A DNA stretch of 64,000 nucleotides from a virus (taxonomy: Duplodnaviria; Caudoviricetes), in the IMG/VR virus record IMGVR_UViG_3300036546_000109, positions 23,182 through 87,181 of that record, one strand, 5' to 3'. Both the position numbers and the translations under genes were made by a program. Below are positions 1,025-59,332 of the stretch, piece after piece. The notes beneath the pieces are model-generated. The model saw only the letters and a program-made list of their open reading frames with translations, did no database searches and was not told the DNA's origin. The stretch's first letter is position 1; each line of letters opens with the position of its first letter.

Positions 1025-1276
1025 TTATTCCTCGTCTTCCTCTCCGCTTACCAGCTCCTCAAGGATAGCTTCTGCACGCTCTACCACCTTCACCATATCC
1101 TGACCGTACAAACCATTGTCAAAGCCTGTAGCACGACAGTCAGTGTTCTGGTATTTGCCGGAGTAGTCGCCGCACCAGATGTTGAAATAAGCGCCGTTAA
1201 CAGTGATGAGGATGTCAAAATCTTCGTTGGTAGCAACGATATAACCGTATTCGATAACTTCGTGGATGCTGTTCAT
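1025..1276 (-). CDS. acidic early hypothetical protein
   Basis: 83 aa ORF with AAGGA RBS. Confidence 0.75.
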   Translation of the reverse strand: MNSIHEVIEYGYIVATNEDFDILITVNGAYFNIWCGDYSGKYQNTDCRATGFDNGLYGQDMVKVVERAEAILEELVSGEEDEE

Positions 1277-1625
1277 TTCGTTTTTTCCTTAGCCTTTGGG
1301 CTTTTCGTTTGCTGTTGGGGTCATCCTAACAGCTTGGTTTGTGGTGTCAACAGCTACTTCGCTTTATTTTTAATCTTTCTGTTTGACGCTATCTGTTTGA
1401 GTATTGGCCAGACTACAGCCTGCATACATTCTTCGATGATAAAATCGGCCATAATCAGTAGCCAAGCCAGATCAGAACAGCCTGAGCTTCGTAGCTGTTA
1501 CGCAGCCCCATGTCCTGCACAAACTCTTCCCAGCTAGCCCCATCAGGAAGCCTAGACAGGTTGCGAAAGCTTCCATAGCTGCCATTTGTGTGCTGTTAGG
1601 GAGCCATTCGTTAGGGGGCTTCATA

Positions 1626-1865
1626 TCACAGCCCAACCATTGCAGCACGGATGCCAGCCTTAGACCACTTTACGCCATCGTCAGTGTGGGTAATTCCACG
1701 GCTGTGCAGTTCGTCAAGGACATTCTGAGCTGCTTTGTCCTTCGTACCAGAGCAATTATTTACATGTTCAACCATCATCTGATACAAGCCGTAATCGTTA
1801 TTCAGCCAAAGCGATTGATTCCACTGGGCGTAGTTCTTGTGGCCGTTGTAGGATTTAGTGGTCAT
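1626..1865 (-). CDS. conserved phage early protein (YNGxxNYxxWNxxLWxxND family)
   Basis: Motif YNGHKNYAQWNQSLWLNND is recurrent in phage early genes; AGGA RBS. Confidence 0.75.
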   Translation of the reverse strand: MTTKSYNGHKNYAQWNQSLWLNNDYGLYQMMVEHVNNCSGTKDKAAQNVLDELHSRGITHTDDGVKWSKAGIRAAMVGL

Positions 1866-1917
1866 GTCTGCGATTCCTGTTCTATCTGGAAGACACTGTG
1901 TCTTCTATGTTGTGTTC

Positions 1918-1945
1918 ATTCTACAACATACAGCTTTGATGGCAA
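1918..1945 (-). promoter_or_regulatory. sigma70-type early promoter
   Basis: TTGCCA-N16-TAGAAT. Confidence 0.65.
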
Positions 1946-1967
1946 ATTAATTGTTTCTATCAGAAAA

Positions 1968-2348
1968 CTAGTAATTAATAGAGCCAAGCCTGTCCATGTA
2001 TTTCTTACCTGCTAATTTTGGCTCAAGAACGTAAACTATTTTTGATTTATAAGACCCATCCCTAAAATCATCCTCACTTGGCGGATAATAGGCAAAGTAT
2101 TCCCATTCTCCTATCTTGTTCGCTTTGTACAGCTCATTAACCTTATCATCGTCGATTGGATTGTTGCCTTCTTTTTGCATCTGCCAGTTTACGCGCTCTT
2201 TATAACCTTTTAGTGTTAGTTTTTGCAATTGGGCGCTGTTGAGTGTTTTTGCTAGTGGTTGGAAGTCCTTGACAAACCCATTCCACACCATAATTTCGGG
2301 GTTTCCTTTCACACTCTCTAGCAATGCAATTAATTCATTTTTTCTCAT
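1968..2348 (-). CDS. hypothetical protein
   Basis: Start moved to MRKNEL (GGGGTG RBS). Confidence 0.7.
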   Translation of the reverse strand: MRKNELIALLESVKGNPEIMVWNGFVKDFQPLAKTLNSAQLQKLTLKGYKERVNWQMQKEGNNPIDDDKVNELYKANKIGEWEYFAYYPPSEDDFRDGSYKSKIVYVLEPKLAGKKYMDRLGSINY

Positions 2349-2502
2349 AAACACCCCACGATTTGGAAAGTTTAAAATTTTGTCTGTAATATGATAAATC
2401 ACTAACGTGAACAATGCTCACAGTTTCACTCATGTTCTCATAACCACTATCAAAAATGAATGCTTGACCGTTTTCGATCTTATACCAACGAGATTGCTTC
2501 AT
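2335..2502 (-). CDS. hypothetical protein
   Basis: Packed ORF overlapping both neighbours; start uncertain. Confidence 0.45.
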   Translation of the reverse strand: MKQSRWYKIENGQAFIFDSGYENMSETVSIVHVSDLSYYRQNFKLSKSWGVYEKK

Positions 2503-2686
2503 GTTCTTTGGTTCCAAATTTAATTTCTTGGTAATCATCTGACATATATGACATTTCAGGTAGTTCGTACCTGTAGCACCATGTTCCGCATGGCCACAAG
2601 ATTATGTCTTCGTGGTCTGCTAGATTGCTTGAACAATCAGGGCAAAGTTCCACAGGACTCCAATGCTCGCACATAATCCGCCCCAT
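2480..2686 (-). CDS. Cys-rich hypothetical protein (CEH...CPDC)
   Basis: Start set just after the upstream stop; possible zinc ribbon. Confidence 0.55.
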   Translation of the reverse strand: MGRIMCEHWSPVELCPDCSSNLADHEDIILWPCGTWCYRYELPEMSYMSDDYQEIKFGTKEHEAISLV

Positions 2687-2687
2687 G

Positions 2688-2843
2688 TCAGTACCACACC
2701 TTGCCATCATTCGACCATTGTTTGATGAGTCGAGCACGTTGTTTGCACCAATAGACGCCACCAATCTTATCGTTTCCTGCATCGTATGTATAGAAGATGC
2801 CTTTATTTGCTTTAGCGGCTTTGCAAGCTTCTTGATAGGTCAT
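2688..2843 (-). CDS. small hypothetical protein (MTYQEACKAAK...)
   Basis: GGAG RBS; the upstream ATG overlaps the -10 box so is unlikely to be used. Confidence 0.6.
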   Translation of the reverse strand: MTYQEACKAAKANKGIFYTYDAGNDKIGGVYWCKQRARLIKQWSNDGKVWY

Positions 2844-2877
2844 TTCGTGTTGCTCCGTGTTTGTTTCTGTTGTGCTC

Positions 2878-2905
2878 ATTATACGGGAATCTAAAACCAC
2901 CACAA
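2878..2905 (-). promoter_or_regulatory. sigma70-type early promoter
   Basis: TTGTGG-N16-TATAAT. Confidence 0.55.
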
Positions 2906-2924
2906 ATTGATTATTTCTATAGCT

Positions 2925-3113
2925 TCAATGCTTTGCGATAGATTCTTCCAATGATTCCTCCTTCATTTCCTCACAATAACTATGAATGCCTTGCTTGCGC
3001 TGATATGAGCTTTCCATAACACAAGTCGTCATGTCTTCGTACAGCTCAGGGCTAAGATCGTGGCATTGCCCATTAGACAGACATACACTCACCACAAGAG
3101 CATAGAGAATCAT
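2925..3113 (-). CDS. YebW/DUF1482-like small protein
   Basis: MILYALVVSVCLSNGQC..D...Y....C pattern resembles the YebW family. Confidence 0.6.
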   Translation of the reverse strand: MILYALVVSVCLSNGQCHDLSPELYEDMTTCVMESSYQRKQGIHSYCEEMKEESLEESIAKH

Positions 3114-5193: not shown

Positions 5194-5445
5194 TCAATAC
5201 ATTTTCGTCTGTTTAAGCTGCTTTTCTCGGGCAGTTGAGATATTCTGGATCAGGATTAATCCCTTGTCAAAAGCTTTCTTTGCTTTTTCTTCATCTTTGA
5301 ACATCTCTCGAACATCGTGGGAAAGCTGAGCTGTTGCCCATGCTCGCCAATATCCCAAATCATAAGCGTTGATGGCTTTAGAAACGTATTGTAGATTTTT
5401 GTATACGTTCCAAGCTGCTGAGAGGTGTTGGTTATAGCCTAGCAT
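5194..5445 (-). CDS. hypothetical protein
   Basis: 83 aa ORF, AGGAG RBS. Confidence 0.7.
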   Translation of the reverse strand: MLGYNQHLSAAWNVYKNLQYVSKAINAYDLGYWRAWATAQLSHDVREMFKDEEKAKKAFDKGLILIQNISTAREKQLKQTKMY

Positions 5446-5463
5446 AGCTATTCTCCTGAAAAA

Positions 5464-5706
5464 TTACACAATTTTGGGATGTGTCTCACACTGCATCTTA
5501 ACATCATACCCACGGCCATCAAGTTTAAGCAACTTTTTACCTGTATCTACCCATATGTAGCCGTATTCTTTCTTGTGAAAGCTGCACATATACGGGCCTT
5601 CCGCATAAACTCCCGCGCCCTTCTTTAGCCAGTAATTGCACATACCCATTTGTTCGTTGGTCAGCCACTCGGCGTCAAGTTTTTCAATCTGAGACATGGT
5701 TTTCAT
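5464..5706 (-). CDS. hypothetical protein
   Basis: 80 aa ORF, GGAG RBS. Confidence 0.65.
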   Translation of the reverse strand: MKTMSQIEKLDAEWLTNEQMGMCNYWLKKGAGVYAEGPYMCSFHKKEYGYIWVDTGKKLLKLDGRGYDVKMQCETHPKIV

Positions 5707-5774
5707 TTCGCAACTCCGGTCGGTTTATGGTTATTAGTATAGACTTGACATTTGCTTGTGTATAATTGGAATTT

Positions 5775-7385
5775 TTAATCGCCACATAAAGCTGATAAGA
5801 TTTTCTCAATGACAGGAACTGTCCAACCATTTCCCAATACCCTATATCGCTGATTATCTGATATTCCCGCAGTGTACCCATCATACAGGCTCAGAGATAA
5901 ACAGGCTTTCCCCGTTTGCATTGGAATGTATCCAGTAATGACACTCTCTGCAAACCAGTAGCAAATTCTCAAAATCTGATCTGTACTCTTCATAGATAAA
6001 CGGGACAATGTGGTGAATGTGGAACTGCTGTCCATCATCATGTTCAAAATGGATTCCGCATCGTTGACATGTAGCATTGTCTCGTTTCCAAACAAATTTA
6101 ATTGCATCTTTCCAAGTGTCTGTTGAGTAAAAAGACTGTCTTTCTGAGGTAACTCCCCCCTTCCAATTTGCGCTATTTTCCCCTCTATTATACAAATAGA
6201 AACACCCTGAACTACAGAAACCTCCCCTGTTCTTTGAAAGAGGCACGGTTGTTTCTGTTCCGCACTGTCTGCACTCAAAAACTGTTCTATTTGTTGGTTG
6301 CGAGGCTTTGTTTGTAGCGGTATCCCCATACCTACACTTTCTGGAGCAGTATATTTTGTTAGCAGAAACTTTTGATGAGTATTGTACCCCACAGCCTTTA
6401 CAAACTCTTGTAGTTCTGTTTCTTCTACATTCAAAACAAGTTTTAGCAACTTGGGATTTTTCTTTACCACACTTACAAAGTTCTTTGCTTGGTCTAAACA
6501 TGTAAAAATTTCTACCTCTTTCTTAATAAATCCAAAACCCTGCGCCCTTTCGCACTCGATCGGTGTAAACTTTCTACGTTCTCCGTTTTCCTTTTCAACT
6601 AGGAAATTATGCTGCCAACTGCTTGTAGTAATACAAGGCATTTTGTCCACTAATCGAGTACCGCCTTTGTTATAACCTCTCGGCCAAGTCCACACCCCTT
6701 TATAATCTTTATCTTCCAAAATGTCTACAATCTTTGGCGAATGTTCCAAATCTTTTATATCTTTTTCGCCGTAAGTTGTTGTTTGCAGGAACGAGGACCA
6801 GTAGTAACGCTCTCGATTTTGAGCCGTAAAAGCCCTTGAATTAATTTTTACCGGCCAAGTCTTAAGATGGTGTGTTATTACGTCTTCAAATTCCGCACGC
6901 ATTTTTACATTCTCGAGTAGAAAATCAACGCTTCCTTGGTAATCCTCAATTTCTTTTTTAATCCTCACGAACTCAAAGAATAGTGCAGATCGAGGGTCAT
7001 TGAAATTCAATTCACTCCCAGCAAAGCTAAAGCCCTGGCAAGGTGAACCTGCCAAAATAAGGTCAACCTTCTGGTAGTAATTCTCGTCCCCCAATCGCCA
7101 TTTACCATTTTCAGACTCAATATAATTTCCACTAATTTTAACTGTCCGAACGTCACCAAGCCGAATGATATCAGGATGATTTTTCTCGCTAATCTTAATT
7201 GCGTTTGGTTCAATTTCTGAGGCAAAATACTTTATATTACTAAATCCAAGATTTTTAAGCGCTTGCAAACCACAGCTTATACCGTCAAATAAGCTAATAA
7301 CTACGATTTCACGGGATAGCAGGTTTTGTTTGTTTGTTTCAAAACAACTAATATTCTCTAAAAATTCACACTCAAATCGACTCAC
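5775..7385 (-). CDS. C5 DNA cytosine methyltransferase with a ~217-codon in-frame insertion between motifs IX and X
   Basis: Motif I SLFDGISCG, IV GSPCQGFS, VI LLENV, VIII QNRERYYW, IX RKFTPIECERAQGF, X QRYRVLGNGWTVPVI. Confidence 0.92.
   Translation of the reverse strand: MSRFECEFLENISCFETNKQNLLSREIVVISLFDGISCGLQALKNLGFSNIKYFASEIEPNAIKISEKNHPDIIRLGDVRTVKISGNYIESENGKWRLGDENYYQKVDLILAGSPCQGFSFAGSELNFNDPRSALFFEFVRIKKEIEDYQGSVDFLLENVKMRAEFEDVITHHLKTWPVKINSRAFTAQNRERYYWSSFLQTTTYGEKDIKDLEHSPKIVDILEDKDYKGVWTWPRGYNKGGTRLVDKMPCITTSSWQHNFLVEKENGERRKFTPIECERAQGFGFIKKEVEIFTCLDQAKNFVSVVKKNPKLLKLVLNVEETELQEFVKAVGYNTHQKFLLTKYTAPESVGMGIPLQTKPRNQQIEQFLSADSAEQKQPCLFQRTGEVSVVQGVSICIIEGKIAQIGRGELPQKDSLFTQQTLGKMQLNLFGNETMLHVNDAESILNMMMDSSSTFTTLSRLSMKSTDQILRICYWFAESVITGYIPMQTGKACLSLSLYDGYTAGISDNQRYRVLGNGWTVPVIEKILSALCGD
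5881..6501 (-). CDS. HNH homing endonuclease nested out of frame in the methyltransferase gene
   Basis: CxxC/CSxxC zinc motifs, GENSANWKGG, RDNATCQRC...HIHHIVP...NLLLVCRECHYWIH; own GAGGT RBS. Confidence 0.9.
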   Translation of the reverse strand: MFRPSKELCKCGKEKSQVAKTCFECRRNRTTRVCKGCGVQYSSKVSANKIYCSRKCRYGDTATNKASQPTNRTVFECRQCGTETTVPLSKNRGGFCSSGCFYLYNRGENSANWKGGVTSERQSFYSTDTWKDAIKFVWKRDNATCQRCGIHFEHDDGQQFHIHHIVPFIYEEYRSDFENLLLVCRECHYWIHSNANGESLFISEPV

Positions 7386-7585
7386 AATAATCCTCCCACT
7401 GTAAACAATTTATCTTCAAAATCTTTAAGGGCTTGGAGATATCCCTTGTCCTCATCATCTTGGGATGGACAGCCCTCCCAATGCTTCAAATGCTGCACAA
7501 GAGCGCTATAACCAAGCTTTATTGCATATTCACAATCCTCGACTCCCAATTGATACCCTTCGTTGTATTCTGTAGAGGTTTTCAT
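7382..7585 (-). CDS. hypothetical protein
   Basis: 67 aa; stop overlaps the MTase start (ATGA). Confidence 0.65.
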   Translation of the reverse strand: MKTSTEYNEGYQLGVEDCEYAIKLGYSALVQHLKHWEGCPSQDDEDKGYLQALKDFEDKLFTVGGLL

Positions 7586-7586
7586 A

Positions 7587-7763
7587 TCACATTCCTAATT
7601 CAATTTCAGCTTGTTTTAGAAGGCTTCCCAATGAAGCTGACCACAGAATAGGCTCTTTCTTATCAGTCGTCAAGCTAAAGACTGTCCAGAGTCTATCAAT
7701 CTTTTCTATGGAAAACCCCGATTCAATAAGCATGTTGTATAGCTTAGATGAATATGTGTTCAT
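7587..7763 (-). CDS. hypothetical protein (58 aa)
   Basis: Fills the gap between packed ORFs. Confidence 0.55.
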   Translation of the reverse strand: MNTYSSKLYNMLIESGFSIEKIDRLWTVFSLTTDKKEPILWSASLGSLLKQAEIELGM

Positions 7764-7772
7764 TTAGAGTCG

Positions 7773-8114
7773 TTACTCGTTGAATGCTTTCCACATATTC
7801 AACACCTTTTGTTCCAACTTGTCAAGAGAATCCTCAACCTGTTTTCGTGTCAGGGAGTAGATTTTAAGATCGCACCACTCGCCGTCTTTGTTCTCATGGC
7901 ACAAGCTCACTTCAAATGATTCACTCTTATACCCATGAATCAATAAATCTGAATGCAAGATATTCAACAAGGTCTTGTTATTGCATTGACACAGCGGGAT
8001 GGAGAATTTTAGGATTTCATCCTCTTGCAAACGCCTTTGGTAGTGCTTAACCACACCATAGCTTTCGTTGTCCGTCTTCCAGCATTTGTAGCCTTTTTCT
8101 TCTAGAATTTTCAT
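7773..8114 (-). CDS. hypothetical protein
   Basis: 113 aa, GAGGA RBS. Confidence 0.7.
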   Translation of the reverse strand: MKILEEKGYKCWKTDNESYGVVKHYQRRLQEDEILKFSIPLCQCNNKTLLNILHSDLLIHGYKSESFEVSLCHENKDGEWCDLKIYSLTRKQVEDSLDKLEQKVLNMWKAFNE

Positions 8115-22743: not shown

Positions 22744-23376
22744 ATGACAAAGAAATATAAGTCCAGTTACTACAACTCGGGCGGGGTGTATAAGACACGA
22801 CATTCCCCTCCTAGTAATGCTAAGACAAAGGCTTGTCAGTTGTGGGAAAATATCAAGAACAGGTGTGAGTATTTGCCATATAAAGACCCTGTACGTTTTG
22901 CTAACTATATAGATGTAGATTGTTGTCCAGAGTGGAAAGATTTCCAAAACTTCGCACAGTGGTTTGAAAGCGTTGTTGAAAATGGATATTTTCACGAAGG
23001 TTGGCATTTGGATAAAGATTTGTTGGTCAAGAATAATAAAATCTATTCCCCGGCGACCTGTGTATTTCTTCCAGAGGGAATCAATAAAGCACTCAGCACG
23101 AGGAGTGGGGATCGAGGGAAATTTCCGGCGGGATTGTGTTATGGGAAATTTTCTAAAGCTTTAGGTGAGATGACGTTGCAAGTTACTTTTAGTTGCAAGC
23201 ATCCAGACTTCTATCTAAAAACGGTTGTTCCTATTTCTAGGCTCGAAGAGTGTTTTAAAATGTACAAAGATGCGCGGGAGAGCTACATCCGGTATCTTGC
23301 AGGTGTCCATAAAGAACAACTTGACCCAAGAGCCTACGATGCACTTATGAAATATGAAATAACAATGGAGGACTAG
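22744..23376 (+). CDS. HNH-family homing endonuclease
   Basis: CPEWKDFQNFAQWF...WHLDKDLL...YSPATCVFLP; paralog of 33010..33636. Confidence 0.8.
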   Translation: MTKKYKSSYYNSGGVYKTRHSPPSNAKTKACQLWENIKNRCEYLPYKDPVRFANYIDVDCCPEWKDFQNFAQWFESVVENGYFHEGWHLDKDLLVKNNKIYSPATCVFLPEGINKALSTRSGDRGKFPAGLCYGKFSKALGEMTLQVTFSCKHPDFYLKTVVPISRLEECFKMYKDARESYIRYLAGVHKEQLDPRAYDALMKYEITMED

Positions 23377-58866: not shown

Positions 58867-59170
58867 CTGGTTCTTCAAGATTGGTCGCTACTCAATCCCC
58901 GCAACATTACTTGCAGCTCTTATTTTCATAAGAAGTTGAGACTATATCATCACCCCTCGGGGTGCCTACCGCTTCGTCCTGCTTAGGACTACATTTAGTC
59001 GTTGAGGGTTTCTCTTTTAAGAGACTTCCCTGCTGATTGCCCATTGTTACATCCGATAACTTTTCAAACCGTGGCTTTGACTTTCGTCTCGCAGTGGTAT
59101 ATCGACTTTAGGGGTTTCCAGCATTTCAATAGGTTTTTACTTCACCGTTACCGATGAAGGGGGCAAATCT
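58867..59170 (-). ncRNA. group I self-splicing intron (304 nt, no ORF)
   Basis: P1 GGGGGU/GCCCCC with U-G at the splice site; P AATGCTGGAAA, Q AATCAGCAGG, R TCAACGACTA, S GATATAGTC; terminal G; splicing restores GGQAGGGKS. Confidence 0.92.
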
Positions 59171-59332
59171 ACCCCCGCCTGCTTGTCCACCATAGAAGAT
59201 AATATCTACCTCCTCCCCTTCATCAGTGGCATACTTGCTACGCTTACCCGTCCCGTCTCTTAGTGTGAGAAACAACTCTTGGGGTTTACTGCAAGGGGAT
59301 ATTACTGTCTTATTACTCTTTGTTCCAGCCAT
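59171..59332 (-). CDS. terL: terminase large subunit, exon 1 (54 codons)
   Basis: PQELF...[11 protein letters not shown]; spliced product is 532 aa. Confidence 0.9.

Follow-up and report, generated by a model that had tools for sequence, protein, structure and literature searches.

The window analysed here is the whole 64,000-nucleotide stretch (positions 23,182 to 87,181) of the IMG/VR virus record IMGVR_UViG_3300036546_000109 (Duplodnaviria; Caudoviricetes). It carries an uninterrupted open reading frame (ORF) for a C5 cytosine DNA methyltransferase (MTase), inside which a gene for an HNH endonuclease is hidden in another frame. The explanation that we favour, with a probability of about 75%, is that a homing element of about 650 nucleotides (nt) that does without splicing has settled in the motif-IX DNA of this phage C5 MTase, and that the host frame, open across the element, is translated through it. 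Because the insert is kept stop-free in the host frame, the MTase would be translated through as a protein of 536 amino acids (aa), and we consider this read-through of the insert, with no splicing, to be probable. The nested arrangement had been proposed from the letters of the sequence alone (hereafter the original prediction), and it is borne out by matches to PF00145 and PF01844 that lie in different frames, with no stop in the MTase frame. The features on which the argument rests are listed in Table 1.

By its motifs and its modelled fold the 536-aa protein is a C5 cytosine DNA MTase, and its activity is predicted. Motifs I (FxGxG), IV (PC), VI (ENV), VIII (QxRxR), IX and X (GN) are all found, in this order, and the ORF starts at a GTG codon (7385-7383) with the sequence GGGAGGA upstream at 7397-7391. 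Three residues of motif X, which follows the insert (R513, G518 and N519), are invariant across 67 aligned MTases, insert-bearing and insert-free alike.

The junctions of the insert were fixed by alignment with insert-free alleles, a check that the original prediction had proposed. The alleles compared were L051 and L053, which are empty, L054, which is occupied, and L001, the occupied allele of a sister phage. At the DNA level, the net gain relative to L051 and L053 is 648 nt, that is, 216 codons. In the nearest empty allele an 11-nt segment, TGCCAGATAAC, stands between CAGGGTT and TACACT, and the insert can be read as 659 nt in place of this segment or, minimally, as 652 nt (5883-6534) in place of GCCA. 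An insert of about 651 nt (5883-6533) had been predicted; this size holds approximately, but the figure has to be replaced by the net 648 nt, or by 652 or 659 nt depending on what the insert is taken to replace. The insertion point lies within motif IX (QG[LF]PD/xYT, the slash marking the break) and not, as first thought, at the junction between motifs IX and X. The 5' flanks of L001 (occupied) and L053 (empty) are 90.7% identical, with 100-nt blocks at 97-100%, and the final 29 nt ahead of the junction show no difference between the two. In the MTase frame, the insert is a stop-free loop at about residues 284-500.

A protein search gave the same picture. Insert-free relatives form 30 clusters of 299-342 aa at 70-93% identity, in which the sequence ...ECERAQG-L-P-D-x-Y/H-T... 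runs on uninterrupted, and five clusters of 536-545 aa are occupied by the window's insert; the four besides the window are 544-545 aa long, about 86% identical and open in frame. Many MTases of 500-560 aa, at about 42% identity, bear an insert at the same place. The element is a discrete insertion with presence/absence polymorphism among MTase alleles.

The insert and its host gene have distinct histories of conservation. Between the window and L001 the insert is identical at 648/648 positions, while the MTase flanks form a mosaic of 93% identity, whose blocks range from 76% to 100%; between the window and L054 the insert is 95.1% identical, against 73.6% and 67% for the flanks. The empty alleles are nearer to the window MTase (86%) than the occupied L054 is. 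Family-wide, HNH identity and upstream MTase identity are loosely coupled (Pearson 0.41), and some pairs reach 0.84 for the one against 0.25 for the other. An insert far better conserved than its host gene, with a disjunct distribution, is the signature expected of homing, and these sequence comparisons point to movement between diverged MTase alleles. As a separate observation, the MTase alleles are mosaic over window positions 5700-7460 when set against L001 and L053, identity per 100 nt swinging from about 70% to 100%, which suggests frequent recombination within the gene.

The HNH ORF takes up 621 of the approximately 652 nt of the insert and leaves about 30 nt over. About 34 nt of the insert precede its ATG (6501-6499), and its TGA (5883-5881) falls on the Y-D codons of the right junction, where the original prediction had put the stop codon. 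Cysteine-rich zinc-ribbon repeats precede the HNH domain. Eight residues that make up two CxxC pairs and the HNH (C145, C148, H163, H164, N179, C184, C187 and H188) are invariant in relatives, and the PDB relatives of the protein are 6me0, 5h0m and 6ghc. We assign the product of the nested ORF to the HNH endonucleases with a beta-beta-alpha-metal motif that bears His-Asn-His and with two CxxC pairs, and it is a predicted nuclease. A search for an internal sigma-70-type promoter for the HNH gene gave none above chance. The HNH protein has one methionine only, the initiator; an ATG followed by a codon that begins with A gives TGA in the MTase frame, and the overlap may account for the single methionine.

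The search of viral, metagenome and genome contigs used the HNH protein or the HNH alignment alone, so that the resulting sample is blind to the state of the MTase frame. After removal of duplicates, 33 distinct full-length copies were obtained, whose HNH proteins are 42-60% identical to that of the window. In every one of them (33/33) the frame +1 to the HNH, which is the MTase frame, has no stop across the HNH and is open on both sides. Where the contig contains the entire ORF this frame extends over 378-854 codons, and the third frame over 3-63 codons. Relatives with frequent stops in the MTase frame, which the original prediction had named as a sign of a dead MTase, were thus not encountered among the insert copies. 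The copies lie within ORFs of C5 MTases, each interrupted at the same site in motif IX and reading ...ECERLQ(G/T)(F/V)P(D/E), then the insert, then x(Y/W/F)T..., and motifs I, IV, VI, VIII and X are retained in most of the complete host ORFs.

Two further groups of loci accompany these copies. Three copies (L006, L022 and L044) have one to three stops each in the HNH frame, and the MTase frame is open in 3/3; these broken-HNH copies (L006 being the same as L043) probably represent the decay stage of a homing cycle. Five loci that match the C-terminal HNH domain only are free-standing genes, and the four distinct ones carry 5-15 stops in the +1 frame. We also observed that in L006, whose host ORF has 854 codons, the order of the motifs looks permuted or fused.

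The open frame was then set against chance by a simulation in which the HNH protein was held fixed, synonymous codons were drawn from the codon usage of the flanks and stops in the +1 frame were counted. The window would be expected to hold 2.35 +1 stops, and the family a mean of 5.0 per copy; the HNH protein contains few stop-prone codon pairs. A chance of 3e-5 had originally been given for the open frame of the window, but the null was the wrong one: with the HNH protein fixed, 5.6% of trials are stop-free, so that 3e-5 overstates the single-locus case. The strong evidence for the open frame is the family, not the window alone. In a test that takes relatedness into account, made on ten non-overlapping (independent) close pairs, changes that are synonymous for the HNH and create a stop account for 4.4% of synonymous sites; 21.8 such differences were expected and 0 were seen (P 3.5e-10). 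Selection against stops in the MTase frame, which had been suggested as a check, is therefore detected, and it is this selection that keeps the host MTase frame of the insert free of stops.

Beyond staying open, the MTase frame of the insert is under little constraint. Pairs whose HNH identity is <0.5 have an amino-acid identity of 0.47 for the HNH frame and of 0.28 for the MTase frame, and nucleotides vary most at the HNH wobble position. When the HNH was fixed in a simulation, with random synonymous codons and with +1 stops forbidden, MTase-frame identity was 0.236; as this is near the observed 0.28, most of the MTase-frame conservation is a by-product of HNH conservation. Differences in the ten pairs were also classed by their effect in both frames, N and S denoting nonsynonymous and synonymous. 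For the HNH frame, dNN/dSN is 0.30 and dNS/dSS is 0.26; for the MTase frame of the insert the ratios are 0.68 (dNN/dNS) and 0.61 (dSN/dSS), the latter with few doubly synonymous sites behind it. Between the window and L054, 17/26 differences are synonymous for the HNH yet alter the read-through peptide. The HNH is a strongly constrained gene (omega ~0.3), and the MTase frame of the insert is weakly constrained (about 0.6-0.7): mainly it must stay open, and otherwise it is nearly free to vary. Strong amino-acid selection on the read-through peptide was rejected, given the small excess over the simulation and an omega of about 0.6-0.7.

These values bear on the alternative of a two-function overprinting, in which the insert peptide of the MTase frame would have a function of its own as a domain, for instance in regulating the methylase or in immunity to the HNH. 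An identity of 0.28 that is slightly above the simulated 0.24, two ratios that are each below 1 (0.68 and 0.61), and insert ends that are both predicted as strands able to pair would be compatible with such a domain. On the other side, the MTase-frame conservation mostly follows from that of the HNH, and the small excess of identity could be residual shared ancestry or codon bias. The structural model speaks against a folded domain as well. AlphaFold2 (AF2) was run on the alignment of 67 sequences, about 45 of them insert-bearing MTases, and despite these sequences the predicted confidence (pLDDT) stays below 50 over insert residues 292-500 (about 25-45 over 209 residues). We regard a functional insert domain as quite unlikely.

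In the rest of the model, the core (about residues 20-290 and 500-536) has a pLDDT of about 90-96, with 83-96 for the MTase part downstream of the insert, and it matches DNMT3-type catalytic domains (Foldseek E 2e-17, template-modeling score [TM] about 0.67 on the target). Strands 287-294 and 495-502 border the insert, and confidence is low for most of 287-294 (pLDDT about 42-71) and throughout 495-500. The model fits an insert that forms a tolerated disordered loop, its ends held together, on an intact core.

The elements that usually carry a homing endonuclease gene were also considered. The insert could be a self-splicing intron, unrecognised or highly reduced, that carries the HNH, the open host frame being incidental; HNH genes of phages are often housed in group I introns, and the terminase region of this phage contains such an intron. 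Yet an Rfam search of positions 5400-7800 gave no match at E up to 10, while the same search recovered the full-length terminase intron (58917-59180) at 96.6 bits, and therefore intron detection works on this genome. With the HNH ORF filling 621 of about 652 nt, a ribozyme core would not fit. Introns, moreover, need no open exon frame, yet 33/33 diverged copies are open, with significant selection against stops. A group I or group II intron was therefore rejected, there being no relevant Rfam match in 5400-7800 even at E 10, and we judge a splicing intron of an unrecognised or highly reduced kind to be very unlikely.

The insert continues the reading frame of its host gene, as inteins do, and the HNH is read in a frame that is -1 to that of the MTase; an atypical intein or some other excision at the protein level, or a programmed -1 frameshift that yields an MTase-HNH fusion, might produce such a layout. 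The Pfam search of the ORFs of the window found no Hint or intein domain in the MTase or the insert. The insert begins G-F-I-K-K and ends L-S-L-Y, with D as the next residue, so that it has no C, S or T at its start and no terminal Asn or HN, and it is disordered in the AF2 model. An intein was rejected on these three grounds. Against a frameshift, the HNH frame has a stop 7-18 codons ahead of the conserved ATG, and no conserved slippery site was found ahead of the HNH start in relatives. A conserved Shine-Dalgarno sequence was not found there either. Excision from the protein and programmed frameshifting are both extremely improbable. The absence of a group I core and of intein termini, foreseen in the original prediction, is thereby upheld. 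In another relative of the window MTase, the 657-aa protein P0051, a Hint_2 domain (PF13403) is present; inteins therefore invade this MTase family too.

Empty and occupied alleles, the conservation of the insert, 33/33 open copies and selection against stops together support the original idea of a mobile element that spares its host gene by means of an open frame. For such a splice-free homing element we propose the following course. The HNH gene would be read from its internal ATG in the -1 frame and end on the right junction; the nuclease would cut or nick the empty MTase alleles of co-infecting relatives at the conserved site, and recombinational repair would then copy the element into the cut allele. 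Once in place, the element would be removed neither as RNA nor as protein, with no splicing in vivo. As host-frame stops are kept out of it, the MTase would be made as a 536-aa protein, in which the ~216 extra residues would lie between motifs IX and X as a loop that is largely disordered and leaves the catalytic core intact. The ends of the loop may pair as two strands, according to a low-confidence prediction, and the loop-bearing MTase would be active.

Several points weigh against this account. In the window alone, the chance of zero +1 stops given the HNH protein is 0.056. The ribosome-binding site that the original prediction had given to the HNH gene (GAGGT, 6518-6514) is indeed present, but its spacing of 12 nt is long for a Shine-Dalgarno sequence and GAGGT is not conserved in relatives, where the ATG alone is conserved. 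Activity could suffer from a 216-residue loop that adjoins the hinge joining the two domains of the MTase, and orphan phage methylases are often dispensable. Finally, the host ORFs of L017, L030 and L039 (378-508 codons) have no N-terminal motifs I and IV of an MTase that can be recognised; not every member of the family therefore has a working MTase, and these three hosts may be truncated, split or degenerate.

The dispensability of orphan methylases and these three host ORFs, like the weak amino-acid constraint on the read-through peptide, would also suit an invaded MTase that is dead or irrelevant, the frame being open for some other reason, such as the avoidance of transcriptional polarity on downstream genes or a translation of the HNH that is aided by ribosome traffic. 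Polarity is a weak reason, because translation of the HNH already spans the region almost to the junction. In addition, motif X past the insert shows no variation among the aligned sequences and the catalytic motifs are intact in most complete hosts, the copies with a decayed HNH retain an open MTase frame, and the element recurs in intact, diverged MTases. We hold a dead MTase to be unlikely, and retain the splice-free element in a host protein that is read through.

Table 1. Positions of the element, its host gene and the control intron in the window.
Feature	Position	Strand	Basis
C5 cytosine DNA MTase ORF, 536 aa, uninterrupted	5775..7385	-	PF00145, E 4.5e-28
MTase part 5' of the insert, from motif I through the first half of IX, with ...ECERAQG(F) at its end	6536..7385	-	alignment with empty alleles L051 and L053
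Mobile insert: 659 nt in place of 11 nt (TGCCAGATAAC) of the nearest empty allele	5877..6535	-	L001 against L053
Candidate HNH ribosome-binding site GAGGT	6514..6518	-	12 nt ahead of the ATG
Zinc-ribbon HNH endonuclease gene, 206 aa, -1 frame relative to the MTase	5881..6501	-	PF01844, E 3.7e-10
MTase part 3' of the insert: remaining half of motif IX (YT), motif X (QRYRVLGNGWTVPVI), stop codon	5775..5876	-	sequence comparison
Group I intron, full length, terminase region	58917-59180	-	RF00028, 96.6 bits, E 2.3e-25

The element resides in a tailed phage with a genome of ~90 kb, which has genes for a primase/helicase, a DNA polymerase, a ribonucleotide reductase, a baseplate wedge protein, a portal and a terminase. 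A DNA search of the isolated-phage collection found no close relative of the window, and the MTase protein had matches of 37-45% identity only in that collection, reaching as far as the insertion point.

Homing endonuclease genes are thought to survive in genes by way of self-splicing introns, inteins or gene splitting. A splice-free route was proposed in 2025 from a handful of mycobacteriophage methylases (PMC11855218). The same design is now seen in a different methylase class and in unrelated phages. To the published case the family adds an unbiased set of 33 diverged copies, with free-standing relatives as natural controls, and quantitative evidence that selection acts against host-frame stops but leaves the read-through peptide almost free to change. 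There is a consequence for annotation: each such methylase is called as one long protein, and its nuclease gene goes unrecorded. A ready experimental system is offered by the near-isogenic empty and occupied alleles, and by an element in an isolated coliphage described below. The balance tips slightly towards a general third way beside introns and inteins, in which an overprinted nuclease gene rides on an in-frame, stop-free, disordered and tolerated loop; the motif-IX lineage would then be old and independent of ShiLan, and its methylases fully active.

The closest known system is the ShiLan domain, described in 2023 in the gp65 DNA methylase of mycobacteriophage ShiLan and in other actinophages (Gosselin et al. 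2023, PMC9957025) and given a new reading in 2025 as an HNH gene concealed out of frame (Arsenault, Gosselin and Gogarten 2025, PMC11855218); the latter paper also describes an insertion in Pacc40 gp60. The precedent that the original prediction named is real. In both systems the host frame is stop-free throughout the insert, a zinc-ribbon HNH of ~200 aa lies in a different frame, its start a few bases inside the insert and its stop among the final bases, and there is no intron or intein signature; the read-through peptide is predicted to be disordered or hairpin-like, the distribution is disjunct and the insert is better conserved than the host gene. A direct comparison was made with the ShiLan genome (NC_041988.1). 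ShiLan gp65 is an N6/N4 amino-methyltransferase (PF01555), whereas the host in the window is a C5 MTase (PF00145) broken in motif IX, and the 195-aa HNH of ShiLan is 23% identical to that of the window, the two sharing generic zinc-ribbon and HNH residues only. Membership of the ShiLan domain proper, as a sequence family, was rejected on account of the PF01555 host and the 23% identity. The window HNH starts at an ATG with a possible GAGGT upstream, unlike the leaderless-type GTG of ShiLan; its family is found in uncultured phages of diverse environments and not in temperate mycobacteriophages, and it covers 33 diverged copies with a quantitative selection test. As ShiLan differs in methylase class and in HNH, the guess that the window would be an independent or wider case was right. 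The library searched for papers on hidden out-of-frame HNH elements yielded no C5 MTase case, and by its sequence the window element is assigned to a new, separate and widespread lineage of the recently described ShiLan-type kind.

A locus of Escherichia phage BUCT618 (L055, OM735461.1) was seen alongside. Positions 1139-3001 encode a 620-aa N6/N4 methylase (PF01555) with an open frame, and a nested ORF (1552-2157) encodes, out of frame, a 201-aa zinc-ribbon HNH; the record annotates the methyltransferase only. From this arrangement we identify it as a putative ShiLan-type element in a tractable phage of E. coli.

Among splicing elements, a cyanobacterial dnaX intein harbours a homing endonuclease encoded out of frame (bioRxiv 10.64898/2026.09.14.751524). 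There too the endonuclease lies in an alternative frame of an insertion that continues the host frame. That insertion, however, is a protein-splicing intein, whereas the insert of the window is without a splicing domain. With the HNH genes of group I introns (I-HmuI of Bacillus phage SPO1; RF00028) the window element shares a homing gene in a conserved phage gene, a conserved site and presence/absence polymorphism. It differs from them in that there is no ribozyme core, the host frame is open and the ORF fills the insert.

The last comparison is with gene splitters such as mobE in nrdA of phage Aeh1, a free-standing homing endonuclease gene that splits its host gene into two ORFs. The closest HNH relative from an isolated phage (37% identity), gp256 of Bacillus phage vB_BanS_Sophrita (L056, OK499991.1, 1671-2495), is likewise free-standing; it is mis-named histone-lysine N-methyltransferase and stands between the 'helicase-like' ORFs gp255 and gp257, which look like a gene split by a homing endonuclease gene. 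As in the mobE type, the element of the window is a homing endonuclease gene within a coding gene, with no intron or intein, and host function would be rescued at the protein level. Unlike in the mobE type, the host gene is unsplit: it is a single 536-aa ORF, with the nuclease overprinted on it in a different frame.

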